Virus record (IMG/VR): IMGVR_UViG_3300024999_000091 | Span: 4,256 to 68,255 of that record | Origin: a virus | DNA: 64,000 nucleotides | Strand: one strand, 5' to 3' | The notes under the pieces: model-generated | What the model was told of the DNA's origin: nothing | Seen by the model: the letters and a program-made list of their open reading frames with translations, nothing else | The model's database searches: none | Made by a program: the position numbers and the translations under genes | In this document: positions 47,422-64,000 of the stretch, in pieces | How positions within the stretch are numbered: position 1 is the first letter of the stretch | How the letters are laid out: every line of letters starts with the position of its first letter

Positions 47422-47426
47422 ACCAA

Positions 47427-47711: not shown

Positions 47712-47798
47712 TCATTGGACCAAGCCGGGGGCGATGCTCCCCCCGGCGGCAGTCGAGCGGTCAAACATCCAGATCAAAATCAACACGGAGGACGGGCA

Positions 47799-48247: not shown

Positions 48248-48257
48248 GGAGAGAGTT

Positions 48258-49353: not shown

Positions 49354-49362
49354 GAGAACGAT

Positions 49363-49728: not shown

Positions 49729-49802
49729 CCATTGGACCACGGCGGGAGAAATCCCGCCTGCAGTCGAGCGGTCAAACATCAACATCAAAAAATGGAGAAC
49801 AC

Positions 49803-49985
49803 ATGAACTCGTGGCAGATCAACCAGCAATATCAGCACCAAATGTTCAAAGCTATGTTCCACTTCGACTTCATTTTATATCGGAGCAGACCGGTAGACGC
49901 GCAGGTAATGTATCGCATCAATTTTCCCGAAGCACTTCACTACGTGACGCAAATGCACGATCTCAAGGAGATGAACAGATGCTGA
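49803..49985 (+). CDS. Small hypothetical protein
   Basis: GGAG RBS after the second copy of the structured leader. Confidence 0.55.
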   Translation: MNSWQINQQYQHQMFKAMFHFDFILYRSRPVDAQVMYRINFPEALHYVTQMHDLKEMNRC

Positions 49986-50200
49986 AGACCAGAAAAGCAA
50001 AGCGCCTCCTGTCGAAATGGGAGCAATCCCACCTGACGGCGGTCGGTATCAACCGGGTTGAAGACTTCGACGAGCGGCTGACCGCGATGGCAACAGATCA
50101 GGCGAAGGCCGAGCGAAGAAGCGAGAATGATGTCCCGGTTGTGGTGGTTGGGTTTTGCCCTACCTGTTGGGGGATTGGCAAGAAGTTGAAAATGATATAG
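49979..50200 (+). CDS. Small hypothetical protein
   Basis: AAGGAG RBS; CPTC. Confidence 0.55.
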   Translation: MLKTRKAKRLLSKWEQSHLTAVGINRVEDFDERLTAMATDQAKAERRSENDVPVVVVGFCPTCWGIGKKLKMI

Positions 50201-50219
50201 AAGAATATCAACCAAGGAA

Positions 50220-50489
50220 ATGAATATGAAAATAACGCACATTACACGGAAAATATCCGGAAATAATTATGACAATATATCGGTCACCGCTGAATTGGCG
50301 GATGGCGATGATCCAGTAAGATGCGCTGTTGACCTTGATGAAAAAGCATATGAAATGCTTCGTAAAATCAAAGAAAACGAAGAGTCAAGGAACAAAAAGG
50401 AAGAGTCAGTCAGAGAGTTGAAAAACAGGATAGAACAACTGCTTTGGCGTATCAATAACGGTGAAGACGTAGGCTATATCCCTTTCTAA
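50220..50489 (+). CDS. Hypothetical protein
   Basis: AAGGA RBS; ends in IPF, like an SSB-type tail. Confidence 0.65.
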   Translation: MNMKITHITRKISGNNYDNISVTAELADGDDPVRCAVDLDEKAYEMLRKIKENEESRNKKEESVRELKNRIEQLLWRINNGEDVGYIPF

Positions 50490-50507
50490 TCCAACTGGAA
50501 CTTCTAC

Positions 50508-50547
50508 AAAAGGCCCCGCTGGTTTCCCGGCAGGGCCTTTCTATTTT
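50508..50547. terminator. Bidirectional terminator
   Basis: AAAGGCCC...GGGCCTTT hairpin between convergent operons. Confidence 0.7.
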
Positions 50548-50717
50548 CAATCCACCAGATATTCTTCAGTCACGAACGCGCACACCACTTCGACAAGTTC
50601 CGCCCTCATCGAATCCACGATCACGGTAGCATGCGGGTGCATGTTGTCGTTCAGCCATTTAATGAGCGGCCGCACGGTTTTCTCGAATTCTTTTCTTTGA
50701 TCTTCGGTGAGTGTCAT
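50547..50717 (-). CDS. Small protein (56 aa), paralog of 55255..55425
   Basis: RPLIKWLNDNMHPHAT shared; GGAGG RBS. Confidence 0.7.
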   Translation of the reverse strand: MTLTEDQRKEFEKTVRPLIKWLNDNMHPHATVIVDSMRAELVEVVCAFVTEEYLVD

Positions 50718-51127
50718 CTTCCATCCTCCGGCAGTACTGGTAATGGTTTTCCGAGAAGCTCAACAACCTTGGCGTAAATCTTCTTGATCGTCGGCCAACT
50801 CACCGGCACCTTCTCGGTAATCGTCTCATCCGCATTCGGAAAAGTCTCACATAAATTACACTCACCGCAGTCGCAGTAATCAGGATTTCGCACCTCGATA
50901 CTCTCGTAGAACTCGCCCATGAGCGCACCTTTGGCACCGTTTTCAGCGGTGAGGCGTAGCGGCATGGCGATCATGTCGGCGGCCGGTGCGCGGCTGTCCC
51001 AGGCGGCTTGCCATGAAATTTTCATGGCTTCGATGTTTGCGTGATCGAATATGTATTCAGATAGGGGGTATTCCCCGGCAAACCACTCTCCAAACGCCTT
51101 CCGGCACTCACTCAATTCTTCATCCAT
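50714..51127 (-). CDS. Hypothetical protein with Cys cluster
   Basis: LTAENGAKGALMGEF...CDCGECNLC...VSWPTIK; start probably at MDEEL. Confidence 0.65.
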   Translation of the reverse strand: MDEELSECRKAFGEWFAGEYPLSEYIFDHANIEAMKISWQAAWDSRAPAADMIAMPLRLTAENGAKGALMGEFYESIEVRNPDYCDCGECNLCETFPNADETITEKVPVSWPTIKKIYAKVVELLGKPLPVLPEDGR

Positions 51128-51185
51128 CACACACCCCTTGTACTCTGAAAATTTTTCCCGAAATGACCAATCACCACACGATTTT

Positions 51186-51374
51186 TTACTCTGCCGCCCC
51201 CCCCATCGATAGGAATTTACCGTCGATATCGAATTCAAACTCGGTGAAGAAACCAGGATATCCTTCAACCTTATCCATTCCTTCATCGCAGATCACCGAT
51301 TTCCCTTCTTCCCTAAAGCCAACTCCGAATTCGCTCAACAATTTTAGCAACTTCTCCTTATCCGTCATGTCCAT
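51186..51374 (-). CDS. Small hypothetical protein
   Basis: AAGG RBS; operon packing. Confidence 0.55.
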   Translation of the reverse strand: MDMTDKEKLLKLLSEFGVGFREEGKSVICDEGMDKVEGYPGFFTEFEFDIDGKFLSMGGAAE

Positions 51375-51564
51375 TTACCTTGTTTTGAAAGGGAGAAACT
51401 ATCTTGATTTCGGTTAAATACAGTTTCCCATTATACTGATAACCAACAACAATTCCACAATACCAACTGAAGCGAAACTTTTTGCCATACTCTTTCGCTT
51501 CAGCGATCACGCAATCAGCGGAGACACAATTTTCAAGCATCTCCTCGGAAAAGAAAGTTTTCAC
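51358..51564 (-). CDS. Small hypothetical protein
   Basis: GGAGGTGAG RBS before GTG. Confidence 0.55.
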   Translation of the reverse strand: MKTFFSEEMLENCVSADCVIAEAKEYGKKFRFSWYCGIVVGYQYNGKLYLTEIKIVSPFQNKVNGHDG

Positions 51565-51573
51565 CTCACCTCC

Positions 51574-52074
51574 TCACGGTCCTTCAAACCGATATACCCC
51601 ACATTCACCTGTCCGGTCACCAGGCTCTAAACGACGGATCGTGCAGAGCCACATAATAGCCGCCACGCACCCGTCATGAATTTTTTCCAGATGAAAACCG
51701 ATTCCCCGCTCTTGATCAAAAGCGCTCGCCAATCCATGATATGCACTCGCGATATACCCGAGCGCCTCCATGGTCTTCCTGGTCTTCTCGCTTCCATCCG
51801 GTTTCCAGGAGACAACCTGCATCTCACTCACAGCCCACTTCCGGCACATCGCCGCGAGCTGCACCAGTTCGATATGGAGGTCGGTATTGCGCTCTGGGGC
51901 ATTTTCCGTGCTTTTGTGGAAGGCCTCAACCACCTCGTAAAACTCCTCGGTGAGCGCGCCGAATGCTTCCCACTTGCTGAGGAAGTGGCCATTGATACGG
52001 ATTGCCCGGGCCAGTTCGGCTTCCACTTCGGCGAGGATTTCTTCCGTGGTGGCTGACAGGTTAATTTTGACCAT
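51574..52074 (-). CDS. MazG-like/all-alpha NTP pyrophosphatase-like protein
   Basis: EAFGALTEEFYEV...ELVQLAAM. Confidence 0.5.
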   Translation of the reverse strand: MVKINLSATTEEILAEVEAELARAIRINGHFLSKWEAFGALTEEFYEVVEAFHKSTENAPERNTDLHIELVQLAAMCRKWAVSEMQVVSWKPDGSEKTRKTMEALGYIASAYHGLASAFDQERGIGFHLEKIHDGCVAAIMWLCTIRRLEPGDRTGECGVYRFEGP

Positions 52075-52861
52075 TCCGCCCCCTGTGCTTCTCGACAACC
52101 GCGTTGATACTGTCCTTCCAGCGGATAATCGGATCGTCATTGTACCTTTCGTAAAGAGCCATTATCTGCCCATCGTTTTGCAACTCCTCAAGCCACTCAA
52201 CTTCTTTCCGGTATTTTCCCGGCACCCGCAACCTGGCCTTGTTCATCTTGCCAATCCATATCGTATCGGTGACAAATTTCCTGATCAACTCGACCAATTT
52301 TACCGTTCCCTCGAAACCTTGGAGCATTGGCTCAATCGAAACTGAGGTGTGATATCCGCCCAAGAATGCACTCACGAGACACGTGTGCCTTTCATTTGGC
52401 TCGGTCGCTCCAGGTTCCCAGAAGAGAGAAATGGAAGGATCAGTGGTTCCCATAGTGAACCGGAAAAGTATTTGGCTCTGGCGCCCCATGAAAGCATCGA
52501 TCATTTTCTCCACACATTCCAGTCGAGGCTTTGAAACGATCAGGAGTTTATTACCGCTTTCAAGAATCAAATTTGCCACTCGAATATAAGCGTCCACATT
52601 GAAAGGCGTGATATCGTGGCTACTGGGGAACATGATAACGCCATCCCTGGCGGGGTAATGCTTGATATCTGCCCGCTTCGTTAACTCCTCCCGCGCCCAA
52701 TCTTCCCTTTTCCTTTGGCCAAACCTGTTGGCATTGCTGGCAGCATAACAATAGAGGCAGTTGTTCGCGCATCCGCGGCATATGTTTTCATTCACCTCGG
52801 CCCATTCGGCCGTACCTGTGCCAACTCTCTTTTTATCGAAATCGTTTCCCATCAAACCCAC
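52061..52861 (-). CDS. Radical SAM protein
   Basis: GCANNCLYCYA (CxxxCxxC), SSHD, SVSIEP. Confidence 0.85.
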   Translation of the reverse strand: MGLMGNDFDKKRVGTGTAEWAEVNENICRGCANNCLYCYAASNANRFGQRKREDWAREELTKRADIKHYPARDGVIMFPSSHDITPFNVDAYIRVANLILESGNKLLIVSKPRLECVEKMIDAFMGRQSQILFRFTMGTTDPSISLFWEPGATEPNERHTCLVSAFLGGYHTSVSIEPMLQGFEGTVKLVELIRKFVTDTIWIGKMNKARLRVPGKYRKEVEWLEELQNDGQIMALYERYNDDPIIRWKDSINAVVEKHRGRNGQN

Positions 52862-53325
52862 CCCCTCGCCTGATAACCTTTCGCGTAAGATTCAGCCTGC
52901 ATGCGACCAAGTTCAGCAGGCGTCAATTTCTTTTTGGCCTTCTTCTTTTCATCCGGTTTTTCCACCTCGACCTTTGGCGGCTCAACTGGGGGAGCGGCGA
53001 ACTGCTTTTGAGCCTCTTCGCTCTTCGTCTTATTCATCGATCGCAAGCGACTGGCGATCCTGCCGGTCGTTTCCGCCACCCGCTGCTTTTTCCTGGCCTT
53101 CACCGGCGCACCCTCGCAAGTGCAATATTTCTTACTCTTCCGGCGCAACTGATCGACCCGCAACACCCGCTCGTGGCCGCACTTGTGCCGGCAGAGCCAT
53201 GTGGTTGGCCGGTTATTGCCGACGGCGACCACAGACAGCACTTCCCAATCACCAAACTTGCTGCCGGAATAGTCCTTGAAATTCGGACCGTCTACTCCTT
53301 TTCCCATTACGTATTGATCAGCCAT
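52852..53325 (-). CDS. Basic protein with N-terminus like AP2/HNH-associated domains
   Basis: G.KFGDWEVL...WLCRHKCG; no catalytic HNH seen. Confidence 0.5.
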   Translation of the reverse strand: MADQYVMGKGVDGPNFKDYSGSKFGDWEVLSVVAVGNNRPTTWLCRHKCGHERVLRVDQLRRKSKKYCTCEGAPVKARKKQRVAETTGRIASRLRSMNKTKSEEAQKQFAAPPVEPPKVEVEKPDEKKKAKKKLTPAELGRMQAESYAKGYQARGWV

Positions 53326-53539
53326 TTGATTTTTCCTTTACCGTTGCGGCATCCGCATCCTTTCTGCGCTGCACAGCTTTTAACACTTCTGCCAAATCAT
53401 CAGTGGTCAAAAGAAAGTCGGCATTATCGTTCTCAGGCGATCGAACGAGAAGCGTGATTTTCTTACCTGGCTTAAAGCATCTCTCAATCTGTCCCAATTT
53501 TTCTTCACAGTAATCTGCTACATCATCCAGTTTGCTCAT
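53318..53539 (-). CDS. Hypothetical protein
   Basis: Coupled ORF. Confidence 0.6.
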   Translation of the reverse strand: MSKLDDVADYCEEKLGQIERCFKPGKKITLLVRSPENDNADFLLTTDDLAEVLKAVQRRKDADAATVKEKSNG

Positions 53540-53967
53540 TTGCCTTCCTCCAGAATCTTTTCGATATCGTTAAGATATTCCAGTAATATTGTTTCCCTTT
53601 CATTGCATTCCCATTCGTAACAAAGAAGAATATCCTCTCTCCAGAATTTCACAGCCGCCCGTATCGCCTCAATCTGACGCTCTACCTGCGTTTTAGCCTG
53701 CGATAGCTCGCAGTTTTCACATTCTACGAGTCGCCGTGCGGCGGAGGTATTCTGTATGATCTTGGTGGATTTATCTTGGTACTCCCAAAAATTTCCGCGA
53801 CCGTCCGTTACTCGATAAAATACACCTGGATTCATGCGGCCTATTCGGCGTTTTTCCTCGACGAATATCCCTTCCTTTAGCGGGTTATTCTCGCTGGCGT
53901 AAATGCCAATAACTTTGTCGCCAAATTTTGGCCGGCGTGTTTTTCCGTTCTGGTTGTCGCTCATCAT
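53536..53967 (-). CDS. Hypothetical protein
   Basis: Coupled ORF. Confidence 0.6.
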   Translation of the reverse strand: MMSDNQNGKTRRPKFGDKVIGIYASENNPLKEGIFVEEKRRIGRMNPGVFYRVTDGRGNFWEYQDKSTKIIQNTSAARRLVECENCELSQAKTQVERQIEAIRAAVKFWREDILLCYEWECNERETILLEYLNDIEKILEEGK

Positions 53968-54431
53968 TTCTTTCTCCCATGTTTTTCAGAAAAAGACATC
54001 CACCCCTTCGGCATCCTTGGGGAATAAACCTCACCACAAGGCTTTATCCCTTTCCACGCCGGATCACAGAACAACCGATAGTGCCACACCTCAAGTTGTT
54101 TTCCTTTGGCGGTATGTGGCGGCTCGATCCACAGCAATCGAACATCGTCGCCAAAAAACGCTTTTGCCAACACCTCGGCCCGGCGAGCAAGGTATCCATC
54201 CTCGAAAGAAATCGACAAATGGTAGCATTGTTCGTAGTCAGGATTTTTCCACCACCCACAAGAATGATATCCAGCATCCCGGGTGAAGATCACCTTGGCT
54301 CGCTGCGGCACGAAGAAACTCCGGCAGGCAATCAGGTAATCGAAGGTGTCGTTCGTCCCATCGAAAGTACCGGTCATCGCCCTGGCTTTGGCGTTTACCA
54401 CCAAGTCTTGAAGGTTGAAATAATCAGTCAT
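53964..54431 (-). CDS. Hypothetical phage protein
   Basis: GYHSCGWWKNPDYEQCYHLSISF motif; coupled. Confidence 0.65.
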   Translation of the reverse strand: MTDYFNLQDLVVNAKARAMTGTFDGTNDTFDYLIACRSFFVPQRAKVIFTRDAGYHSCGWWKNPDYEQCYHLSISFEDGYLARRAEVLAKAFFGDDVRLLWIEPPHTAKGKQLEVWHYRLFCDPAWKGIKPCGEVYSPRMPKGWMSFSEKHGRKK

Positions 54432-54817
54432 GATCCAGCCCCCATAACTTCCGAGTTGTACCGCTCTTCATCTATCCCTCTCAACTCGACGAGAAGTTGC
54501 CCGGCCTGGTTCCCCCATGTCGAAGGGTGAAGGCCATCAGTGTTGCGGATGAGACGGGCGAGGCGGTAGAGGATATTATCCTTCTTCCCTTTCGGCGGCG
54601 TCCACCCGAGTTTGATCAACTGTTTTTTGATCTCTTCTTCCTGTGTGTTCATCACCAACATTGTGATGTTTTCTCGGATACTACCAAGGTGAGAAACGAC
54701 CTCGGAGAAGATCACCTCATCCTTCACTGACGTTTTAATCTCATAACCAGCCGAAAACCTATTTGTCGATTCTTCCTGCTCCGCCCAATACGGCTTGTAC
54801 TGTTTTTGACCACTCAC
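54428..54817 (-). CDS. Hypothetical protein
   Basis: GGAGG RBS; LIKLGWTPP. Confidence 0.6.
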   Translation of the reverse strand: MSGQKQYKPYWAEQEESTNRFSAGYEIKTSVKDEVIFSEVVSHLGSIRENITMLVMNTQEEEIKKQLIKLGWTPPKGKKDNILYRLARLIRNTDGLHPSTWGNQAGQLLVELRGIDEERYNSEVMGAGS

Positions 54818-54955
54818 TCACCCGCCTCCCGATGATTTTAAACAGCGTATACGCCTCTCTAACATCATTATGTAGCTTGCCACGTACGTTCTTGTGCGCG
54901 GCACCTTGTTCTTCCGCCTACAGTCAACCTCGCAAGCACAGAAGGCAAACCAGCC

Positions 54956-55111
54956 TTACGCTTTACCCCTGATATTGCCCTCGATGCACTCAGGGCATTT
55001 CACGAACAACCCAGTGCTCGTTTTTCCGACTTTCGTCTTATGCTTTTCGCAGTACGATTGCCGTCGGTCGAGTTTGTAGCATTTGCCGCAGAAGTCTCTT
55101 GGCTCTCTCAT
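54956..55111 (-). CDS. Small Zn-finger protein
   Basis: CGKC...C...CPEC. Confidence 0.5.
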   Translation of the reverse strand: MREPRDFCGKCYKLDRRQSYCEKHKTKVGKTSTGLFVKCPECIEGNIRGKA

Positions 55112-55147
55112 TTTTCTCTCTGGTTGATGTTCAGTTACTATCGGGCA

Positions 55148-55250
55148 TGAACGGTGACGCGGAATCGAACCGCGCAGCACCCGGCTTCCCCACTGATAGA
55201 ATCAGCGCCAGGCTTTAGGAGTGCATTCTACCTTTCTGCCACACCGTTCA
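55148..55250 (-). ncRNA. tRNA-like element (pseudo-tRNA or tRNA mimic)
   Basis: Acceptor stem TGAACGGTG/CACCGTTCA, D-arm TGGCAGAAAGGTAGAATGC, T-arm CGCGG-TTCGATT-CCGCG; non-canonical anticodon region; no CCA. Confidence 0.6.
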
Positions 55251-55254
55251 TTTT

Positions 55255-55425
55255 TCAGTCTTTCAGGTAGTCTTCTGTGGTGAAAGCGCAAACACCTTCC
55301 ACCAGTTCAGCATGTGTGGTGTCGATGATAATCGTAGCGTGAGGATGCATATTATCGTTCAGCCACTTTATTAAAGGTCGTGATAATTCTTCAAATTCTT
55401 TGCGTTTCTGCTCATTCGTTTTCAT
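55255..55425 (-). CDS. Small protein (56 aa), paralog of 50547..50717
   Basis: MKTNEQKRKEFEELSRPLIKWLNDNMHPHAT...; GGAGG RBS. Confidence 0.7.
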   Translation of the reverse strand: MKTNEQKRKEFEELSRPLIKWLNDNMHPHATIIIDTTHAELVEGVCAFTTEDYLKD

Positions 55426-55582
55426 CTTCGTATACCTCCACCAGTTCGTGATATTCTCTCAGACTCTCGGCAACTTTTTCCGCTGAGTCTTTCGACATCA
55501 GGCCAGTTTTTACCCACTCGCCAAACTCCGGGTTAACCTGCCTCCAGTATTTTACTCGATACTTTTGATTGCGATTTTTCAT
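55412..55582 (-). CDS. Small hypothetical protein (56 aa)
   Basis: AGAGG RBS just downstream of the inversion site; MKNRNQKYRVKYW... Confidence 0.6.
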   Translation of the reverse strand: MKNRNQKYRVKYWRQVNPEFGEWVKTGLMSKDSAEKVAESLREYHELVEVYEDENE

Positions 55583-55595
55583 AGGTGCCTCTGGT

Positions 55596-55608
55596 TGATT
55601 GTACTTTC
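55596..55608 (-). other. Left inversion site GAAAGTACAATCA
   Basis: 12/13 inverted match to 63874..63886; end point of the large inverted repeat. Confidence 0.8.
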
Positions 55609-55632
55609 TTAGTGGTCACAACCGGCCGCCAC

Positions 55633-56970
55633 CTAGTTTATTTCCTGAACCATATCGCCGAACCTACACCGGCCCCCATCAAAGAACATTTTCACAGTTC
55701 CAGGATCGCCGTATCTGTTTTTCCTCACGATTATTTCAGCCAATCCTCGTAACGGATTGTCTTCTGACGTGTTATACACCTCATCCCGATAGATGAAGGC
55801 AATAACCCCTGCATCTTGTTCAATCGAACCAGATTCCCGGAGATCAGACATCATTGGTTTCTTGTCCGGTCGCTCATCACATTTCCGGGAAAGCTGTGAT
55901 AGGGCAATGACCGGCACATTTAAATCTTTCGACAAAGCCTTAAGCCCTGCAGAAATTGCGGTAATCTCTTGCTCCCTGGAAACTGCCTTGGCTTTCCCGA
56001 GTTGCATATAATCGACAACCACCAGGCCAATAGATCGCCTCATGGCCTGGATTTTCGCTCTGGCTTGAATTTGGGTGATACCAAGGGCAGAGCTTTCATC
56101 AATGGTGATTGGCAGTTTCTTTAGAAAAATTGCCGCTTCCTGAACAGCCTTTAATTGATCAGGCGTCATTAAACCCCGATCCATTTTTTTGGTGTTCACG
56201 CCAGAGATGGTCGAGATGAGTTTTTGTACCAGCCTTTCAGATGCCATTTCCATTGAGAAAATCAACACCCCCGTCCCGGCCTTAGCCACATGATGGGCGA
56301 TATTCATGACAAATGTGGTTTTCCCCATCGCTGGCCGGCCGGCAATAATAGTCACCTCTGCTTTTTGTAGGCCTCCAATCAGGCTGTCGAAATCAGCAAA
56401 TCCGGTTGGAAGCCCAAACGTGTCTTTCTCACCATTATGGATTTCGGTGATGTGTTTGAGTAACGAATCAGTGATGACGGAGATATCCCTGGTATATTCG
56501 GTGTCATCGGTGGACAGATTAACGATCTCCTGGCCAAACTCATTCACCAGATCATTTACCGGGGCACCGTCATAGCATGATCCGGCGATTTCTTCGGCGA
56601 CCTTGATCAACTGCCGTGCTTTCGCCTTCTCTTTCACGATCTGGCAAAAATCTTTTATTCTTGACCTTATCGGGACCACAGCACAAAGCGATGACAGGTA
56701 TGCGAAACCTCCGACCTCCTCAAGTTTCGAAATATCCTTCAGGAAAGACGAAACGGTTACAAGGTCGACGTTGACCCTCTTGTGCCAAAGAGAATAAATT
56801 GCCTCAAAAATACTTCGGTGATGCGTCTTGTAAAAATCCTGCGGGGCAAGCTCTGCGACTACGGTTGTCACAGCGTCTGGGTAAAGCATGCATGTGCCGA
56901 TGATAGACATCTCGGCCTCTATATTCTGCGGCGGGACTCTTGTTGATTGAAGACTGTGCGGCGCGTTCAT
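55633..56970 (-). CDS. dnaB: Replicative DNA helicase
   Basis: Identical to 2776..4113. Confidence 0.97.
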   Translation of the reverse strand: MNAPHSLQSTRVPPQNIEAEMSIIGTCMLYPDAVTTVVAELAPQDFYKTHHRSIFEAIYSLWHKRVNVDLVTVSSFLKDISKLEEVGGFAYLSSLCAVVPIRSRIKDFCQIVKEKAKARQLIKVAEEIAGSCYDGAPVNDLVNEFGQEIVNLSTDDTEYTRDISVITDSLLKHITEIHNGEKDTFGLPTGFADFDSLIGGLQKAEVTIIAGRPAMGKTTFVMNIAHHVAKAGTGVLIFSMEMASERLVQKLISTISGVNTKKMDRGLMTPDQLKAVQEAAIFLKKLPITIDESSALGITQIQARAKIQAMRRSIGLVVVDYMQLGKAKAVSREQEITAISAGLKALSKDLNVPVIALSQLSRKCDERPDKKPMMSDLRESGSIEQDAGVIAFIYRDEVYNTSEDNPLRGLAEIIVRKNRYGDPGTVKMFFDGGRCRFGDMVQEIN

Positions 56971-57914
56971 AACTCAACCTTCTGGTATGATGAGCATGTT
57001 TTACGGCCCTCTTTCCAGCATGTGGTTTGGTGGTTGAGTTTGTAATTGCATCGCTCGCAGTCGAATAATTTATTGCTACCATCTTCCCCGAGTGAATCCT
57101 CCCACCTTCTCCCCGACAACCAACCTTGGGCGTACTTTGGTGTTTTCCCCTGAGCGATAATTCTCGGTCTCTCTGCTGCTTCGATTCTTGCGGCGTTTAT
57201 AATGGCGTCGACGAGATTTTGCGAATATACGTCCAACCAGGCGTCAGCTGCCTCAGCTTTTGCTTTCGGGTAAGCAAAAGCTGCCCAGAAAAGATTGAAA
57301 TTTTCAAGAACCTTTCCTTTTAATTTTCGTTTTTTCTTTGAAAGGTAAAAAGTCTCTTCTTCAACCTCTTTTACTCCACCGTCTTCGTCAGAAGCGGAAA
57401 GGTTGTTATTATTCTGTTCCTGTTCCTGTTCCTGTTCCTGTATTGGCATATGGTTTCGACATGGTTCCCTAAACCCTTCGGCAAACCCTTCGGCAAACCC
57501 TTTACCTAACCCTTCGCAACATGCTTTTATTAATAAGTAATTCTCGTTTTTCAATGGTCCGTCAGGCAACTCTGAAAACAGTTTTCCCCACATTTTTACC
57601 ACATTCGGATTTGCCGGTTTATTGTGTTTCAGAAAGTTTGGAAGAAGGATAGTAAGGGTCCTTTCGTCATATTTAAACAAACCTGCTTTTAACCCTTCGG
57701 CAAACCCTTTGCCAAACCCTTCGAGGTTCATTCGAGACTCTTCAAGGAGCGATGCTTTCCCCGCCTTAAAGCAACCGAATGGTGATGAAAACGTTGTGGT
57801 GAGGAGGTGAAGAAAAACGAGTTTTCCATAGTCGGACATATAAGGAAATTTATCATCATTCCATATCAGACAATGCACTGTCCTGTATCTTGTCGATGAT
57901 GTGCCCACAGTCAC
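56967..57914 (-). CDS. Phage replication initiator
   Basis: Identical to 1832..2779. Confidence 0.85.
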   Translation of the reverse strand: MTVGTSSTRYRTVHCLIWNDDKFPYMSDYGKLVFLHLLTTTFSSPFGCFKAGKASLLEESRMNLEGFGKGFAEGLKAGLFKYDERTLTILLPNFLKHNKPANPNVVKMWGKLFSELPDGPLKNENYLLIKACCEGLGKGFAEGFAEGFREPCRNHMPIQEQEQEQEQNNNNLSASDEDGGVKEVEEETFYLSKKKRKLKGKVLENFNLFWAAFAYPKAKAEAADAWLDVYSQNLVDAIINAARIEAAERPRIIAQGKTPKYAQGWLSGRRWEDSLGEDGSNKLFDCERCNYKLNHQTTCWKEGRKTCSSYQKVEL

Positions 57915-58070
57915 ACCCTATGATTATCAATCAGTTCTTCGTGAACATCCTGCGAGAAAGGCATTCCAGATTCAAAAATTTCTCGTTTCTCCTTGGAGTA
58001 CTCGCGCAATCTTTCTATCCAATCTTCAAAATCATCATCTATGTCATCTTTTTCTCGCATAGGTTTCACC

Positions 58071-58164
58071 AAAAAAAATGGCAAGCAGCTGGACCTATTC
58101 CACCTTCCAAGGGCACAGGTACCCAAGGTGGAATAGTTTGGCACGTCCAGCTGCTTGCCATTTT
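58071..58164 (-). ncRNA. C4/CI-like hairpin (copy)
   Basis: Mirror of 1582..1675. Confidence 0.55.
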
Positions 58165-58306
58165 AAAAAAGTTTCGATTATTCAACATGTCACCTGTAAT
58201 TCTGGTTTATCGCCCTTACTGCGCGGGTGCCATCCGCTAAGCGATGGCGTAAGAATACCATACTACATAGAACAGTCAAACTTTTTGAACAACTTAGTAC
58301 AAATTA

Positions 58307-59035
58307 TTATCCTACGTAAACTGTTTTACCGGTCGTTTCTGCAACTAATTTCTTAAACATCGCCTCATGGCTATTCGCCGACGAGAGATGAAGAAGATGA
58401 ATTTCCTTCAACCTGCTTTTATCCATCTGCCTTAGGAGGTCTACTACCCGCTGAATGCTCATGTGGCTCTTTATAATCCGCCAGCAGCGCTCTTTTTCGA
58501 CCAATCCGGACGCCACGTTCTCGGCGAGGATCTTCTCGCAAAAATTCGCCTCGATCATCAGGTGCGTAACCCCTGAGAATCGATACTTGCAATAGGCAAG
58601 ATCGGTTATAAAGAGGACCTTCTCATCACCGGACGCAATAATGAATCCAAGTGGTTCTTCAGCATCATGAACCACGTCGAACGGCAGCACGGTCCATCCG
58701 CCAACCGTGAATTGCTGCAGCGCCTGGACGTGATTCATGCGGTGACCGGTCGCTCCGATCTGTTCTGCGGCACCTTTGCTCATAAAAACATCCACTCCGG
58801 CTATCATCATATCCTTTACCGCCTTCGCATGATCGCCATGGCCGTGACTGACCAGGCACCCAGCAGATGACGACAACTGAAAACCCATCGCTTCTTTGAT
58901 CTTCGCAATACTGATTCCGGCCTCGATAACAAGTTTCGATTTCCCGTTATCGAGGAGGTAGCAGTTGCCGGATGATGATGAGGCAATTGTGGTTATTTTG
59001 ATCATGGGTTTTGGCAAATATTCAGTTATAACCAA
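58307..59035 (-). CDS. MBL-fold metallo-hydrolase
   Basis: Identical to 711..1439. Confidence 0.9.
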   Translation of the reverse strand: MVITEYLPKPMIKITTIASSSSGNCYLLDNGKSKLVIEAGISIAKIKEAMGFQLSSSAGCLVSHGHGDHAKAVKDMMIAGVDVFMSKGAAEQIGATGHRMNHVQALQQFTVGGWTVLPFDVVHDAEEPLGFIIASGDEKVLFITDLAYCKYRFSGVTHLMIEANFCEKILAENVASGLVEKERCWRIIKSHMSIQRVVDLLRQMDKSRLKEIHLLHLSSANSHEAMFKKLVAETTGKTVYVG

Positions 59036-59042
59036 TCTTTTC

Positions 59043-59267
59043 CTAACGTTGAGAATTCCATAAATCAGCTATGCGTTGTGCCACTATGCACTGCATTTCA
59101 TATGACATGTTGTAATTATAGGTCGATGTGCATAGGGCCGTGCTGGTGCCGTCTGGCAGAGTTATCCGTACTGTCGGCTGACGGCGATTATCCCTGCTCC
59201 GCTTGACGTATGCCAAGCCATTCTGGAAGTCTTTGATATTGTCAGTGGTGAACCTTATTTCAGACAT
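59043..59267 (-). CDS. Hypothetical protein
   Basis: Identical to 479..703. Confidence 0.6.
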   Translation of the reverse strand: MSEIRFTTDNIKDFQNGLAYVKRSRDNRRQPTVRITLPDGTSTALCTSTYNYNMSYEMQCIVAQRIADLWNSQR

Positions 59268-59274
59268 GTTAACC

Positions 59275-59631
59275 TCAGGCTGTGGGCTTTGGCTTACGAG
59301 CAGATTCCAGTGCTCTGGCGTGGCTTGCATGCAAAGAAGCCCTGTGTTCGTAGTGTGTTTGAAGCGTCCGCAGCGCCCTTGCGAGAGTGCCGTCTGTTGC
59401 TTCAGATAGCCATGGGGAGTTTTTACCGAAACCCGAACTTTTCACTTCATATTCGACAGTTTCATTTCTCTCTCTTCTCACGACTTGTAAAGTTGAAAGC
59501 CGATTAAACCCGCTACTCTGTATACCGGTGGCAGAAAGATATCCGCCCACGTCAGAGTACGGTCTATGCACCGTCCATTCGTACCCAGGCATTATTTTCA
59601 CGAGTTCTTTTCTAAATTCAGATGTGTTCAT
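59275..59631 (-). CDS. Hypothetical protein
   Basis: Identical to 115..471. Confidence 0.75.
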   Translation of the reverse strand: MNTSEFRKELVKIMPGYEWTVHRPYSDVGGYLSATGIQSSGFNRLSTLQVVRRERNETVEYEVKSSGFGKNSPWLSEATDGTLARALRTLQTHYEHRASLHASHARALESARKPKPTA

Positions 59632-59664
59632 TTCTGCTCCATCGCAGATATTGATATTACTTTC

Positions 59665-61632
59665 CTATTGAGCCTCGAAACGCAGTTTCTTATCCGGTTC
59701 CGACACCACCATGCAAATCACCTGACTCTTCATCTCCGGCATGGTGGTCAGTGATTCTTTCCCATCCACAAATACCATCGGATGGAAGCCGTAGTAGTCG
59801 CCAACCACATCGATGATTTCCAGCCCGGCGTGGATCCTCTTTGCATGGTTGAGAGAATTGTAGGGCACCCCGCAAACTTCGGCTTCGCAAATTGGCTCGA
59901 TACCGCCGTTGATCTGGTTCTTGAATAATCTGAATCGCACTGTGGGGAATCGGCTGTTGATTACGCCTTCCAGCATCTCGCATTTCTTTTTGATCAGGGT
60001 TTCGATAAGGAAGAGGTTGCGCTCAGTTACCTCGAATTTCGCGGCCAGGTCCTTCTCTTCTTGCTTGAGTTCGGCAATTCGCGCATCGTCTTTTTCAGCC
60101 TGATCAATTTGAGCGATTACTTTCTCGGTTTCTTCGATTGATTTTTCGAGCCTGGTTTTTTCGGCTGTCAGTTTCTCTACCAGATCGCGGCTCCCCAACT
60201 TGTTCTTTTCCAGTTCCAGATGGAGGTTGCTCATGGAAAAATCAAGGGCGGTGAGTTCCTGAGTTTTGCCGTCATCATCTTTTGCCTTTTGCAACTCGCC
60301 GGTGACTTCCTGAATGCTTTTTTTGAGGTCGGTAATGGTTTTGCCTGTGGCTTCTATCTCGACGCCATACGCCTTAATTTCGGCATCCAGTTCGGAGATC
60401 CGCTGGTTGTTCGCCTGGCCGGTTTCCACGCACTTGGTCAGTTTTGTGGACTTCTCCAAGTTGAAGGCCTTCTCTGCTGCCTCCAGTTGATCTGCCGGGA
60501 GAACCTGAGAACAATATGGGCAGTGATCTGCCGGGAGAACCTGAGAACAATATGGGCAGTGGTTTCCGGTGAAAACAAGGGCGTCGATAGCGGCATATTC
60601 ATCCCTGAGCTTCTCCGTCACCTCGACGGTGTGCTGCCGGTCGCTGGTGGCTATGCCGAGATTGGTTTTTGCCGTGCTGGTCTTCAGGTTGAGTTTTGGC
60701 TCTTCCTGTTTCAAGTTGTTGAGCCGCTCTTGGATATCCTGGACCTTCTTGTTCTTGGCCTGCAGAATGGTATTTTTCAGCTGAGTGATCTGCAATTCGA
60801 CATCGGCGATCTTCGCCTTGGTCGCCGCCACCCCGCCACCCATTTCCGCCTGGGTGAGTTCGGTGTTTTTGGCCGCCAGCAGGTTTCTTGTCGACGTGAG
60901 AAAATCAGCCTTGGCGCTCTTCTGGCCGGAATCGACATTCTCCGGCCGGCCACGCTGCACCTCGTCAATCCTCGCCGGAATGCCCTCGATCTTGGTATTG
61001 ATTTCTTTCCGCTGCGACATGATGGTCGCCTTGAAGGCTTCCGGATCTTTTCCTTGAAGGAGAGCAGGAAGAGCCGAGAGTTCGGGGAAGGCGTTGATGA
61101 CATCGGCGTCAGTGATGGTGCCGCAGATATTAAGCAGAAGAGTTATCCGCTCCTTCCAGTGCATGGTCTCGTTGAAATAGGTGCAGGATGTGAGCAGTTT
61201 GAATATCTGTTCGCCGGTAGTGATCTCGCCAACCTTAATTTTATAGGCACCTTCGGTGACCGGCGTATCGTCGATATAATATTCTGTCGTGTGCCCCGTC
61301 AATTCCTTTAGGACCGAGCCACGTTGTTTCGTCCACTTCTCAGTCATTACCCTGCAAAGGGAAGTGGTTCCCTGGGAAATTCCATTGGTGAAGACGGCTT
61401 TTACTTCACACTCAACTGGTGCGATTGGGGTCCCAACCATGCCGATCGGTTTGATTGCGAAGTTAGCTTGGTCCAGGCTGTCTTTGCCAAAATAGAGCCA
61501 TTGTACGGCATCGCAGATCGTTGATTTGCCGGTGGCATTGTCACCATAGACGGTCAAGTTCTTGCCGTCCGGGGTAAAAGTAAAATTGGTGAATCCCTTA
61601 AAATTGCGGATTTGTAATTCTATCAACTTCAT
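59665..61632 (-). CDS. SbcC/Rad50-like coiled-coil ATPase
   Basis: RNFKG, GDNATGKST, long coiled coil, CPYC hook, FVDGKES Walker B. Confidence 0.88.
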   Translation of the reverse strand: MKLIELQIRNFKGFTNFTFTPDGKNLTVYGDNATGKSTICDAVQWLYFGKDSLDQANFAIKPIGMVGTPIAPVECEVKAVFTNGISQGTTSLCRVMTEKWTKQRGSVLKELTGHTTEYYIDDTPVTEGAYKIKVGEITTGEQIFKLLTSCTYFNETMHWKERITLLLNICGTITDADVINAFPELSALPALLQGKDPEAFKATIMSQRKEINTKIEGIPARIDEVQRGRPENVDSGQKSAKADFLTSTRNLLAAKNTELTQAEMGGGVAATKAKIADVELQITQLKNTILQAKNKKVQDIQERLNNLKQEEPKLNLKTSTAKTNLGIATSDRQHTVEVTEKLRDEYAAIDALVFTGNHCPYCSQVLPADHCPYCSQVLPADQLEAAEKAFNLEKSTKLTKCVETGQANNQRISELDAEIKAYGVEIEATGKTITDLKKSIQEVTGELQKAKDDDGKTQELTALDFSMSNLHLELEKNKLGSRDLVEKLTAEKTRLEKSIEETEKVIAQIDQAEKDDARIAELKQEEKDLAAKFEVTERNLFLIETLIKKKCEMLEGVINSRFPTVRFRLFKNQINGGIEPICEAEVCGVPYNSLNHAKRIHAGLEIIDVVGDYYGFHPMVFVDGKESLTTMPEMKSQVICMVVSEPDKKLRFEAQ

Positions 61633-61722
61633 GGTAATATTCTCCTTGTGGGTTGGCTCGTCACGCCGTTGCTCCCCGGTCCATTCTCGTTTGGGCCGGG
61701 GAGTTTTTATTTCAGGTTGGCC

Positions 61723-62586
61723 TTATCGAACGTTGATAATTGGTACCTGCAACTCACCCATCGCTTCTTTGATTTTCTCCATCTCGGAGTTGAAGGCATG
61801 GTCCAGAATCTTATGCAGATTCTGCATGACAAAGAAGATTCTCAGGCTGCCGTCCTCGACCGAGAACCGGAGGCTGCACTGAATTTCGTAAGGCTTGGTG
61901 CCGTAGAACGGCGGGACGGTAATGGTGAAAGCAGACCGAAAATCCATGTCTCCCTTCTGCTGCTCACCCTTCACCTCTTCGGAATATGAAACGTTCTGTT
62001 GACCGGTGGCGGTATCGATCGAACTCTCCCATTTCGCCCGCTTCTTGACCTTGAGATTTTGTACCATGGTCAGCATCTCGCCGGCTGGTGGGTCGCTGAT
62101 ACTATCAAGGTTTTCTTCGATGAAATAGGCAATGTCCATTTGCCCCATGTGAACCCTGTTCTTCCCAAGCCATCGCTTGAATTCTTCAGTGGCGACCAGC
62201 TCGAAATTGATACTCCTGTCGCTGTGCCCAGCCTTCTCGCCATTCTCGGCGAAGTTGATGATAGCCTTAAAGGTACGCTCCTCCACGTCAGCTTTGATGA
62301 TGGTGGTGGCCGGGATTAACTCCCGTCTTACCATGAGGACGAAAGAGTCGACGTCGGCAACGGTCACGAGTCCGGTGTTCCGCATCGGCCGGCCGGTTTC
62401 CCTGACTATTCTGCGGTCTTCCATCTCCTCGTTGCGCTTGGCGAGGTCGTGAGTTGCCAACGAACATCCTTCCGGAAGGATGGCATAAAGCATCTCCTTT
62501 TCTTCATTTACTTTCGCCATAGCCAATCCATTCATAAGCAACTCCCTGATCGACTCGGCAGCCGGGATTTTCTCCATTTCTTTCAT
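61723..62586 (-). CDS. YfdQ/DUF2303-family phage protein
   Basis: GH.D...L..TEEF..W.....MGQ..IA.FIEEN...F.ITVPPF.G. Confidence 0.75.
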   Translation of the reverse strand: MKEMEKIPAAESIRELLMNGLAMAKVNEEKEMLYAILPEGCSLATHDLAKRNEEMEDRRIVRETGRPMRNTGLVTVADVDSFVLMVRRELIPATTIIKADVEERTFKAIINFAENGEKAGHSDRSINFELVATEEFKRWLGKNRVHMGQMDIAYFIEENLDSISDPPAGEMLTMVQNLKVKKRAKWESSIDTATGQQNVSYSEEVKGEQQKGDMDFRSAFTITVPPFYGTKPYEIQCSLRFSVEDGSLRIFFVMQNLHKILDHAFNSEMEKIKEAMGELQVPIINVR

Positions 62587-62630
62587 GAAAGTTCTCCTTC
62601 TTGTTGGTGTGTATTTGATTTCTTACTGGA

Positions 62631-63035
62631 TCACTGGACCCTGATTACTTCGCCTGTTTCAGGGTTCACTCTTACAGATTCTTCCTCTCCGTCAACCCTC
62701 ACGGTATCAGCCTTGGTTTTCACCTTCACGGCGTCGCCAAGGGACATCTGCCTGGGGCTCCGGCGGGTGATATTGCCATCCGAATCTGCGAACATCACCG
62801 TAGGCTGTACGGTGAATTGAGGCACCTTCTCTTTAAAGTCATCCTTGATAATTACCTGCATACCTTGTGGGGAGAATGAGAGTTTCAAGATAAGTTCTCC
62901 CTTCTTCCCGGTCTGCACACATGCCGCAGTGATGTTTTTCACTTTCTCGTAAAGTTCCGCCACGCAATCACCGTCTCGCAGCTCTCCAAGAAAAAGAATA
63001 CCGTCAGCGTATGTTGCTCTGTTTTCTTCCTTCAC
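62631..63035 (-). CDS. Hypothetical protein typically paired with DUF2303
   Basis: FLGELRDG...TGKKGELILKL...FADSDGNITRRSPRQMSL; GGAGG RBS before GTG. Confidence 0.7.
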   Translation of the reverse strand: MKEENRATYADGILFLGELRDGDCVAELYEKVKNITAACVQTGKKGELILKLSFSPQGMQVIIKDDFKEKVPQFTVQPTVMFADSDGNITRRSPRQMSLGDAVKVKTKADTVRVDGEEESVRVNPETGEVIRVQ

Positions 63036-63113
63036 TTCTGTTCCTCCATCGGTGAAATCCAACGTTTCGATACGAGCTCGACTTCCTCGGCTCTTCCTTC
63101 AACTCTTCGAGGT

Positions 63114-63473
63114 TCAGCGCCCGCCTCCTGTCGTATCGTTTTCGGCCCATCGCCTAAACTCCTCCTCCATGAACATGAGGGCAATCCCTTTCTTGACCTG
63201 CCCTGTTGAAAATCTGTACAGCCTCCACCCGTTCTGAGCGAGAAGAGCATACTTGATGCAATCACCTTCAAACCCGGTGATTGAGGTATGCCTGCCGCCA
63301 TGGTAAAGGCCGCCCTCCACCTCCAGTGCTACTTTCTGCTCCGGCCACGCGAAGTCGATCCTGTACTTTCTCCCGGGCAGGAATAAAAACTCACGCTCCG
63401 GGATGGGATGTTTGAACGCCCTGATGGCCAGATAAAAACTCTCTTCCGCTTCGGACAATTCCTTGCTCATCAC
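63114..63473 (-). CDS. PD-(D/E)XK endonuclease (DUF559/Vsr-like)
   Basis: PEREF...RKYRIDFAWP..KVALEVEGG...GRH...D..KY...GWRLYRF. Confidence 0.8.
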   Translation of the reverse strand: MMSKELSEAEESFYLAIRAFKHPIPEREFLFLPGRKYRIDFAWPEQKVALEVEGGLYHGGRHTSITGFEGDCIKYALLAQNGWRLYRFSTGQVKKGIALMFMEEEFRRWAENDTTGGGR

Positions 63474-63481
63474 CCTTCCTC

Positions 63482-63682
63482 TCAGGTGAAGAAGTAGTTC
63501 GGCTCAACCCCAAATTCCGCGCACATTTTTTCGAGCGTCGGAACCGAAGGGGTAATCGATCCGTTCTCATACCCGTTCACGACAAAATTGGTTTTCACGC
63601 CGATGCGCTTACCAAATGAGTAAACCGTGAGCTTATGCTTCTCTCTGAGTTTCCGTACTTTTTTCGGCTTAAACTTGAACAT
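63482..63682 (-). CDS. Cro-like HTH regulator
   Basis: LREKHKLT...GKRIGV.....YENG...PS...LEK; GGAGG RBS; first gene of the replication operon. Confidence 0.8.
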   Translation of the reverse strand: MFKFKPKKVRKLREKHKLTVYSFGKRIGVKTNFVVNGYENGSITPSVPTLEKMCAEFGVEPNYFFT

Positions 63683-63699
63683 TTTCCTAACCTCCAATG

Positions 63700-63825
63700 T
63701 AGTATTATGCTACTAGCGAATGAGTATTGTTTAGCACATAATTATTTACTGTGCAAGGGTATTATTGCACTAATGCGTTTTTATAGAAATAGGTTATTGA
63801 CAGTTGGTTTTTGGAATGGTAGTTT
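63700..63825. promoter_or_regulatory. Divergent promoter/operator region
   Basis: Rightward TTGACA-N17-TAGTTT (63797-63825); palindromes GTAGTATTATGCTAC, GCACA..TGTGC, GTGCAA..TTGCAC. Confidence 0.65.
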
Positions 63826-63873
63826 TGTGGGGAATAGTGGTGGGGTGGCAGGCAATAAAGCCCTGCCATATTC

Positions 63874-63886
63874 GAAAGTATAATCA
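63874..63886 (+). other. Right inversion site GAAAGTATAATCA
   Basis: Start of the direct repeat of 4138+; preceded by a TGGCAGG/CCTGCCA hairpin. Confidence 0.8.
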
Positions 63887-64000
63887 GTTTTCGCGATGGA
63901 GCAGAATTTGAAAAATTACCTATCGATGGGTTTCGGCGTAAACTCGGTTGCCCTATACCTGCTGATGCAGGATTTAGAAATGGAGTTTGAGGCGGTGTTT
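63874..64000 (+). repeat. Direct repeat of 4138..4264 (start of the next genome copy; 5' end of the PAPS-reductase-like gene)
   Basis: Identical sequence at an offset of 59,736. Confidence 0.95.

Follow-up and report, generated by a model that had tools for sequence, protein, structure and literature searches.

The early module and its flanking repeats

The window, the whole stretch of 64,000 nt analysed here, corresponds to bases 4256–68255 of a 68,255-bp IMG/VR record. Its early control and replication module, in the following called segment S, includes a divergent control region and candidate origin repeats at 57.5–57.7 kb, and is flanked by two small accessory cassettes and by short inverted repeats (Table 1). 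A RecT-family protein is the sole recombination protein recognised in the genome. An inversion with its ends in both divergent arms would, from the gene layout, leave all genes pointing away from the control region.

Table 1. Features of the early module and its surroundings (positions in the window).
Feature	Position	Strand	Remarks
Assembler-made duplicate of the module's left half, inverted	1–4137	-	Reverse complement of 55609–59745
127-nt block	4138–4264	+	Opens with right site 1; closes the 59,736-bp unit; read as assembler graph node
Cassette p	4160–4885	+	PAPS-reductase-like gene; site 1 to site 2, right arm
Right site 2, GATACTAACTGA	4903–4914	+	Directly after PAPS-reductase stop; heads repeated intergenic cassette; core TAACTGA 4908–4914
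RecT-family single-strand annealing protein	5806–7005	+
Left site 2, GATAGTAACTGA	55131–55142	-	Just 5' of small gene's RBS; adjoins tRNA-like stretch; core 55131–55137
Cassette u	55143–55595	-	Two 56-aa genes (55412–55582, 55255–55425); site 2 to site 1, left arm
Left site 1, GAAAGTACAATCA	55596–55608	-	Between dnaB stop and first 56-aa gene; crossover core 55602–55608
Segment S	55609–63873	-	Early control and replication module, including divergent control region
DnaB	55633–56970		In segment S
DnaD-like initiator with 33-nt direct repeats	56967–57914		In segment S
Metallo-beta-lactamase-fold protein	58307–59035		In segment S
Third look-alike of right site 1	59632–59664	-	27/33 identical, 14-nt perfect run
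SMC-like ATPase	59665–61632		In segment S
DUF2303	61723–62586		In segment S
DUF559-like	63114–63473		In segment S
cro-like HTH	63482–63697		In segment S
Right site 1, GAAAGTATAATCA	63874–63886	+	Same as 4138–4150; 5' of PAPS-reductase-like gene; crossover core 63874–63880

With at most one mismatch, the 13-mer GAAAGTAYAATCA is found three times, at 4138–4150 (+), 55596–55608 (-) and 63874–63886 (+). About 0.09 matches would be expected and three were reached in none of 100 shuffles. The consensus is GAAAGTA(C/T)AATCA. The inverted pair at the ends of segment S had been described before and is present as stated; both copies are intergenic, directly 5' of a start codon, and their similarity ends after 13 nt. 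At 4138 the dnaB end is fused to the sequence beyond right site 1. Since the flanks differ immediately before GAAAGTA and the junction copy has the T of the right site, the crossover lies inside the 7-nt core, as had also been proposed. The 13-bp inverted repeat itself is not rare: allowing one mismatch, 1,974 inverted 13-mer pairs were counted in the 59.7-kb unit, compared with 1,047–1,117 in three shuffles. What exceeds chance is the presence of DNA junctions exactly on the repeat. At the third look-alike of right site 1 no junction was seen in the contigs of X1, X2 or X3. That this better inverted match (27/33) is unused would be odd for a purely homology-driven process and speaks against the reading preferred below, although it would be tolerable if the events were rare one-offs or the product unfit.

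A second inversion, nested with the first, has both its junctions in contigs of run X3 at GATA(C/G)TAACTGA (4903–4914 / 55131–55142), and here too the crossover falls within a 7-nt core. The element of about 38 nt headed by site 2 recurs near 5097, 5350 and 7116. Pair 1 measures 13 nt and pair 2 12 nt; both contain a single mismatch and a perfect core of 7 nt. The midpoints of the two nearly concentric inversions differ by about 150 bp. Site 1 and site 2 have no convincing motif or arm layout in common; relative to the mismatch, the perfect core lies inward in site 1 and outward in site 2.

Allowing one mismatch in a 12-mer, 64 inverted-repeat loci exist between the two arms. According to our own gene models both arms are intergenic in just two of these, which are the two pairs used; a random draw of two loci would give both about once in 2,016. 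Because only these two pairs keep all genes intact, their use is explained by selection on living phage and not by chemistry.

Architecture of the record

The opening 8,405 bp of the record are the reverse complement of the closing 8,405 (record bases 1–8405 and 59851–68255), with a single mismatch, the C/T of site 1. In the window this appears as identity of 1–4150 with reverse-complemented 55596–59745, and the inverted second copy extends upstream of the window to record base 1. Furthermore, window 4138–4264 is identical to 63874–64000. This 127-nt block occupies record bases 8393–8519 and 68129–68255, has a reversed copy at 1–127, and as an overlap delimits a circular unit of 59,736 bp. As 127 is a typical assembler word size, an end overlap of just this length suggests that this word size was used. 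The two module copies do not represent separate DNA; they look like one walk through an assembler graph. An overlap of word-size length, circular closure of the unique part and a single non-standard junction (4138) all agree with a terminal duplication that an assembler made in walking across a structural variant; the assembler and its word size, neither of which is on record, are deduced here.

This layout, which is directly observed, alters the preliminary description in two respects. The module had been regarded as physically captured in both orientations, and the 8,405-bp and 127-nt matches instead indicate one circular unit walked twice. The reciprocal junction, predicted some 4.1 kb before the window begins, is absent from the record. 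As the first 8,405 bp are the reversed last 8,405, that stretch holds the ordinary module-to-PAPS-reductase junction in reverse, followed by the record end.

Junctions in independent contigs

Junction evidence comes from contigs, not raw reads, and all of it from one run, X3 (about 75x, independent k=31 contigs). X3 is possibly the source library of the record and therefore does not count as independent evidence. In its contigs the 4138 junction forms a bridge whose ends coincide exactly with the expected graph nodes; contig 24 (777 nt) matches window 4138–4914. Contigs break at the site cores, with ends at 55137 and 63880 and starts at 55131, 55602 and 63874. In reverse complement, the loose letters at 55596 correspond to 4151–4167, those at 55142 to 4885–4902 and those at 55131 to 4915–4926. 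With 17+13 and 18+12 letters, each equal to k-1 = 30, two bridges are complete, whereas one pair 2 junction has just 12 loose letters of the 23 expected for a complete bridge. These break points and three junction sequences are direct observations. When the standard genome and the isomers were mixed in a simulation at k=31, six boundaries were predicted in the compared stretch, five of which were observed; at 55608, where a break was predicted, the left-arm contig runs unbroken from 55131 to 55631. Thus both products of pair 2 are seen in X3 and only one of pair 1 clearly, its reciprocal being half-indicated. Within the approximately 20 kb compared, inversion-type junctions, i.e. loose ends that map back reversed to the phage, occur only at these sites.

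Other assemblies give the standard order. Contigs of X1 and X2 are continuous across both left sites (48975–57443) and across the right site (60532–64000 and 12 kb further), and a separate assembly, L022, is 100% identical to 58872–54729. The second orientation was not seen in one sample at about 13x or in L022. The standard order is the majority.

A count of raw reads spanning the four junctions had been suggested as a check, with misassembly or chimerism as the outcome that would speak against an inversion. The contigs support the new junction at 4138, which is thus not a pure invention of the assembler; for the reciprocal junction they give half an indication, and the upstream copy is the ordinary order reversed.

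Search for a recombinase

The preliminary description noted that overlap cores of 6–8 bp are typical of tyrosine recombinases. Six-frame searches of the whole record for four families remained negative: PF00589 (tyrosine recombinase, 0 of 1; controls 14 of 14), PF00239 (serine recombinase, 0 of 1; control genomes 12 of 14), PF07508 (large-serine recombinase, 0 of 1) and PF01548 (IS110/Piv-type DEDD recombinase, 0 of 1). Likewise, none of the 36 window proteins scanned is a recombinase of the tyrosine, serine, large-serine or IS110/Piv type. This absence is observed directly.

Origin of the rearranged junctions

We consider it probable that the junctions reflect rare in-vivo short-homology rearrangements at two nested repeat pairs, present as minority isomers, in a 59,736-bp unit walked about 1.14 times in the record. 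A circular or circularly permuted phage genome of this size would have been traversed by a de Bruijn assembler which crossed the 8.3-kb early segment twice, in opposite directions, giving the 8.4-kb "inverted terminal repeat". The double crossing would have been possible because a minority of the molecules in the library carry rearranged junctions. These may arise by rare short-homology recombination in vivo, candidate routes being annealing promoted by the phage RecT or template switching during replication. Rearranged genomes could then persist as viable minority isomers because an inversion with intergenic ends keeps the genes intact and pointing away from the promoter. In the simplest single isomer using all four junctions, S would be unflipped and the PAPS-reductase and two-small-gene cassettes would trade sides, in the order dnaB, PAPS reductase, left-arm genes. 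Every junction has a 7-nt core and RecT is encoded; both products are seen for pair 2 and only one clearly for pair 1. Microhomology is a candidate basis. We infer a polymorphism rather than a programmed switch, and likewise the in-vivo origin, the mechanism and the phasing of the junctions.

The rearranged junctions might instead have formed during library preparation, for instance by MDA template switching at short inverted repeats, and then been misassembled, so that no such genomes exist. This appears rather unlikely. All junctions do come from one run, possibly the source library, junction 1 is without a demonstrated reciprocal, the palindromic A'-S'-A layout of the record is as expected of a fold-back, and the genome offers about 2,000 inverted 13-mer pairs of equal quality; chimeras from amplification typically join inverted segments at microhomology. 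However, both reciprocal junctions of pair 2 are present, if one with 12 of 23 expected letters, five of the six break points predicted for a true reciprocal exchange were observed, inversion-type junctions in 20 kb are confined to these sites, and the pairs used are the only two among 64 that spare all genes. Hardly credible at all is a truly linear 68-kb genome ending in inverted repeats of 8.4 kb, despite the ITR class of the record in IMG/VR and its CheckV completeness of 100%. The 127 nt at its ends are found again inside, exactly where the left repeat stops on its inner side, so that the 59,736-bp circle is formed by the unique part together with one repeat. X1 and X2 contigs continue from the module directly over 12 kb of the PAPS-reductase side, and the replication genes belong to the DnaB/DnaD type. 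The protein-primed polymerase family PF03175 was found in 0 of 1 records, a weak blank since none of the 14 control genomes reached the cut-off either.

A programmed site-specific inversion, driven by a host-encoded or unrecognised recombinase with a 7-bp overlap and acting as a reversible early-programme switch, is improbable. It would account for a crossover held to a 7-nt core at both pairs, for the location of all four sites just 5' of ribosome-binding sites and for the use of the two fully intergenic loci among 64; by the logic of the sequence the exchange would regenerate the sites unchanged, so that re-inversion would be possible. Against it stand the negative recombinase searches, the dissimilarity of site 1 and site 2 with the core on opposite sides of the mismatch, the unused look-alike at 59632–59664 and the single orientation in one sample at about 13x. 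Nor do known enzyme classes fit. No resolvase-family gene of the Gin/Hin/Cin/Pin kind lies in or next to the segment, and similarity extends over only 13 nt, whereas paired serine-invertase sites span about 26 bp and are dyad-symmetric about a 2-bp core. For the tyrosine type (FimB/E, Rci shufflon, Xer-type) no phage-integrase-family domain is encoded, and GAAAGTA(Y)AATCA and GATA(S)TAACTGA do not form one common core with a conserved arm; for the Piv/IS110 type no DEDD transposase-like recombinase gene was found. Unlikely, too, are interconverting isomers, in which the intergenic inverted repeats would recombine repeatedly by RecT, fork switching or a host enzyme, flipping the module or swapping the cassettes; if they existed, they would re-wire the promoter-proximal accessory genes and those read after dnaB. 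The proposal that a flip alters the genes behind dnaB and behind the rightward promoter at 63797 stands as far as gene layout is concerned. That promoter has a perfect TTGACA -35 element, but its -10 matches at only 3 of 6 positions and it was not reported by the promoter scan, whose one match equals the shuffle expectation. Nothing indicates regulated or reversible switching, as had been assumed for an early-programme isomer switch, and the data provide no evidence of a novel kind of genetic switch.

If the junctions are products of recombination in vivo, they would represent module shuffling in a phage while in progress, at the only two short inverted repeats that spare every gene, located to both sides of a divergent early control region. 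Such a pattern fits mosaic phage genomes formed by rare short-homology events and filtered by viability. Although labelled a complete ITR genome, the record amounts to a circle of 59.7 kb with 8.4 kb of it passed over twice, and genome length, termini or gene counts taken from it would mislead users.

Comparison with relatives and known systems

A comparison of orientation in related phages had also been proposed. It was possible with 21 loci of PAPS-reductase relatives, all very distant, with one or two genes common to them and the window. In one of the 21 (L020) DnaB is directly upstream and co-directional, and in another (L001) a homologue of the left-arm gene 52061–52861 is downstream and co-directional, this gene pair being located between terminase and portal. 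Each arrangement speaks for the preferred reading with a single example, the distance of the relatives limiting its weight.

Inversion of DNA between inverted sites is known from Mu G/Gin, P1 C/Cin and the Rci shufflons, where the cargo is tail-fibre ends. Two arrangements between inverted sites and exchange in a short core are shared with these systems; here, in contrast, no invertase gene was found, the sites are dissimilar and the cargo is a replication and control module. Bacterial chromosomes undergo symmetric inversions around the replication origin. The two inversions resemble these in being nested and near-concentric and in keeping gene orientation relative to the centre, yet they occur in a phage on a scale of 8–10 kb and are centred on a divergent control region, the candidate origin repeats lying elsewhere.

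With regard to the record itself, CheckV calls an ITR from at least 20 bp repeated at the contig ends; according to the evaluation given there, the high-quality standard was reached by only 33.2% of its ITR contigs, and the same genome is repeated within some IMG/VR contigs (PMC8116208). As in metagenome contigs with spurious terminal repeats, the repeat here spans to both ends, with a 127-nt overlap and a unique part that circularises. Unlike in plain spurious repeats, the walk was enabled by junction words truly present in the reads of one run, so that the artefact reflects heterogeneity that is either true or library-level. Contigs of the ITR type whose repeat stops at a short inverted repeat can serve as a flag for structurally heterogeneous virus populations.

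Phage Red, RecT and Erf proteins are described as inverting a promoter between inverted repeats in lambda (PMC3945230). Like the engineered lambda with inverted repeats around PL, the phage studied here has a promoter-bearing early segment between inverted repeats and encodes RecT. The substrates of the assays described for lambda measured 800 bp, far more than the 7-nt perfect cores here, and this speaks against the preferred reading; RecT is a candidate for the role. In the PeSL cassettes of T4-type phages, recombination between PeSLs is reported to reshuffle modules (PMC2839356). Similarly, the break points of this phage fall in short repeated intergenic cassettes beside small accessory genes. 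PeSLs are promoter-plus-terminator units which give insertions, deletions, replacements and mini-circles, whereas the repeats of this phage are inverted, flank a divergent control region and yield inversions.

Structure of the record and gene content

In a self-comparison of the record, contig positions 1-8405 were the reverse complement of 59851-68255 except at a single position, the C/T of site 1, the inverted 13-nt pair that bounds the early control and replication module (S). A 127-nt block (A) is located at contig positions 8393-8519 and 68129-68255 and, reversed, at 1-127. With U for the rest, the layout of the record is A' S' A U S A. In the window, the reverse complement of 55596-59745 stands at 1-4150, and 63874-64000 recurs unchanged at 4138-4264. 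The only non-standard junction within the record is the one from S' to A at window position 4138, here called the first junction. We infer that the 127-nt overlap at both record ends was left at a graph node by a de Bruijn assembler whose word size was 127. The unique part together with one S closes to a circle after 59,736 bp, and a linear genome with hairpin telomeres or protein-primed ends was considered and rejected, partly for this reason. IMG/VR classifies the record under 'inverted terminal repeats'. In the available part of the CheckV description, this label stands for at least 20 bp repeated inverted at the contig ends, and just 33.2% of the contigs so labelled were of high quality (PMC8116208).

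The 13-mer GAAAGTAYAATCA of site 1 is real: about 0.09 matches are expected, and none of 100 shuffles reached the three found. Direct reading of these three places agrees with the preliminary description in that the dnaB end is joined at 4138 to the sequence following the right site, and in that the crossover is located inside GAAAGTA, since the junction copy has the T of the right site. A reciprocal junction had been predicted 4.1 kb upstream; there, where the inverted copy ends, the record instead shows the standard S-A junction in reverse and then stops. The claim that the module was captured both ways round describes an assembly product; what stands of it is the new junction itself, which was found in k=31 contigs of one sequencing run.

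The module codes for a cro-like HTH protein, DUF559-like and DUF2303 proteins, an SMC-like ATPase, a metallo-beta-lactamase-fold protein, a DnaD-like initiator and DnaB. On the right arm are a PAPS-reductase-like gene (under the Pfam cut-off) and those for KTSC, RecT and DUF2284; the left arm carries an HNH endonuclease gene besides small unknowns. A rightward promoter suggested at 63797 was not reported by a consensus scan, which gave one hit only (leftward, 63733 to 63704), as many as expected from shuffles (0.9). GC skew tracks the coding strand and is uninformative beyond that. In the tRNA-like stretch next to the left copy of site 2, the second inverted pair, ARAGORN found no gene (0 in the window), and the only Rfam match, to an sRNA, stayed below threshold (21.6 bits, cut-off 56.7). 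At the tandem repeat in the SMC-like ATPase gene, the k=31 contigs are broken in every run. Two genes of 56 aa, one at each end of the left arm, are paralogues in direct repeat, 4.7 kb from each other, and as such a possible deletion substrate.

Positions of sites, contigs and other features in the window
Feature	Position	Remark
Module S	55609-63873	cro-like HTH to DnaB
Site 1 (GAAAGTAYAATCA)	4138-4150 (+); 55596-55608 (-); 63874-63886 (+)	first junction; left site; right site
Site 2 (GATACTAACTGA)	4903-4914	directly after the PAPS-reductase stop
Site 2, inverted (GATAGTAACTGA)	55131-55142	left copy
Third look-alike of right site 1	59632-59664	
X3 contig 19	end at 55137	
X3 contig 20	55131-55631	
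X3 contig 21	start at 55602	
X3 contig 23	end at 63880	
X3 contig 24	start at 63874	777 nt, matches 4138-4914
Recurrent intergenic cassette, ~38 nt	near 4909, 5097, 5350, 7116, 7662	right arm, between small accessory genes
tRNA-like stretch	55148-55250	T-arm-like GGTTCGATTCC; adjoins left site 2
56-aa genes	55255-55425; 50547-50717	same strand, share RPLIKWLNDNMHPHA
CTGTTC simple repeat	57418-57447	
Direct repeats, 33 nt	57484-57516; 57691-57723	DnaD-like initiator gene; 94% identical; candidate origin iterons
Tandem repeat, ~36 nt	60484-60576	SMC-like ATPase gene
Single 4,365-codon open reading frame	15053-28150 (minus strand)	structural region

Junctions in contigs of public runs

The stretch is present in four public runs (X1-X4) of one study, from three samples, X1 and X2 being from the same one. 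All were kept as k=31 contigs, three of the four are possible sources of the record, and the comparison covered window positions 44001-64000. In X1/X2 (~13x) one contig spans 48975-57443 and another 60532-64000 plus 12 kb beyond; both follow the standard order and have no branch at any site. In X3 (~75x) contig breaks coincide exactly with the sites. Here, the 17 loose letters before 55596 match, in reverse complement, the sequence directly after the right site, so X3 contains the new junction as a bridge. The bridge measures 17+13 = 30 letters, or k-1, which shows that it joins two graph nodes. X4 (~4x) gave one contig of 574 nt which matches 63330-63880 and continues with 23 non-matching letters. 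L022, a 4,144-nt locus from a separate JGI assembly, is 100% identical to 58872-54729, that is, in standard order across both left sites. All junction evidence comes from one run, X3, possibly the source library of the record.

The same run revealed a second rearrangement, at site 2, the copies of which are nested around the segment bounded by site 1. In reverse complement, the 12 loose letters before 55131 correspond to 4915-4926 and the 18 behind 55142 to 4885-4902. These loose ends represent both reciprocal junctions of an inversion between the two copies, with the exchange inside the 7-nt TAACTGA. At one of the junctions there are 12 loose letters instead of the 23 of a full bridge, which indicates that the minority paths are thin.

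We simulated k=31 graphs of the standard circle mixed with possible isomers. Six boundaries are predicted in the compared stretch, with contigs ending at 55137, 55608 and 63880 and others beginning at 55131, 55602 and 63874. X3 shows five of these and X1/X2 none; the end predicted at 55608 is the one absent from X3. After 63880, X3 has a second branch. The break at 63880 needs a word with the right end of the module and the core, followed by a base other than T. This fits the reciprocal of the first junction, for which a left-arm contig gave no confirmation.

Two bridges are complete, one from the left arm to the reversed PAPS-reductase cassette and one from there to the left end of the module. 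They are adjacent in one arrangement only: left arm, PAPS-reverse, S unflipped, small-genes-reverse, right arm. Such a swapped isomer would be the product of both inversions together; the PAPS-reductase cassette and the two 56-aa genes between the left copies of site 2 and site 1 (55412-55582 and 55255-55425) would trade sides around an unmoved module, and all four junctions would be used at the same low frequency. Its two left junctions would be about 770 nt apart, its two right ones about 470 nt. The break points are matched equally well by two separate single inversions.

Some run contigs match the phage up to 47991, 48193, 48253, 48421, 50705, 53536 or 57447 and then diverge, with up to 255 or more letters absent from the window; 50705 and 53536 are at gene boundaries. 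Mosaic relatives of the phage appear to co-occur in the samples. At the CTGTTC repeat the X4 depth is 71, compared with ~4 elsewhere, and a foreign contig branches at 57447; a different and more abundant genome probably has this repeat as well.

Relatives and gene order

Among 50,697 phage records, megablast found no match for 52000-64000. Exact 25-mers of the left-arm end and the module right end had 0 matches in viral_contigs, and that of the module right end 0 in metagenome_contigs, where records of the same or a very near genome are possibly left out. A search with DnaB gave no relatives in viral_contigs, and in metagenome_contigs only the identical L022, in standard order, and L023, the latter with 36% identity and no common neighbours. 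The collections searched contain no close relative with which the orientation of the module could be compared.

The PAPS-reductase-like gene is common to 21 loci; at E < 1e-5, it is the only link to the window for 19 of them. In L020, a distant relative, methylases, a Rep-O-like protein, DnaB and PAPS reductase are co-directional, with PAPS reductase following dnaB. In L001, an 81% identical PAPS-reductase-like gene is followed by a weak radical-SAM-like homologue (61%) of the left-arm gene 52061-52861; the co-directional pair is located at 9932-12438, between large terminase and portal, and the two may work together. The gene order of these distant relatives backs the swapped isomer weakly, each with one locus out of 21.

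Origin of the junctions

The preliminary description had proposed a dedicated site-specific inversion. A six-frame search of the record for tyrosine, serine, large-serine and IS110-type recombinases found none. The two site pairs differ in their core sequences and have the core on opposite sides of the mismatch. Furthermore, the third look-alike agrees with the right site in 27 of 33 positions, including a 14-nt perfect run, and is crossed unbroken by contigs of X1-X3. A missing recombinase, unlike site pairs and an unused look-alike together are evidence against such a system, and we regard a true switch as quite improbable.

Inverted 13-mers with at most one mismatch are common, with 1,974 pairs in the 59,736-bp unit. 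Between the divergent arms 64 comparable inverted-repeat loci were counted, excluding the rows at 4111-4137, which belong to the artefact copy. In only two of them are both arms intergenic, and these are exactly the two used. If both of its ends are intergenic, any inversion across the divergent control region leaves every gene pointing away from that region. Formation of the junctions in vitro is unlikely, if less so than a true switch: selection on living phage explains why just the gene-sparing pairs were used, whereas in-tube chemistry has no reason to prefer them. We therefore favour rare in-vivo short-homology events, the products of which survive as viable minority isomers; they might arise by RecT-assisted annealing or by a replication template switch. 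The observation underlying the preliminary description is partly confirmed and its interpretation partly supported: behind the assembly product there is a real-looking, modest structural polymorphism with a neat selective signature.

The inversion sites belong to recurrent intergenic cassettes. The ~38-nt cassette consists, in this order, of a stop codon, a small dyad, an A/T-rich run and AAATGGAGCRG as ribosome-binding site; its 3' part is common to the right site and the third look-alike. In the left arm, ATCAACCAGAG precedes two starts. These elements recall the PeSL cassettes of T4-type phages, which, in the part of the source available, shuffle modules (PMC2839356). In the accessible text of another study, the phage proteins Red, RecT and Erf flip a lambda promoter that lies between two inverted repeats, though these are 800 bp long (PMC3945230). 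The polymorphism is of a familiar kind, a rearrangement at short repeats, and not a new class of genome switch.
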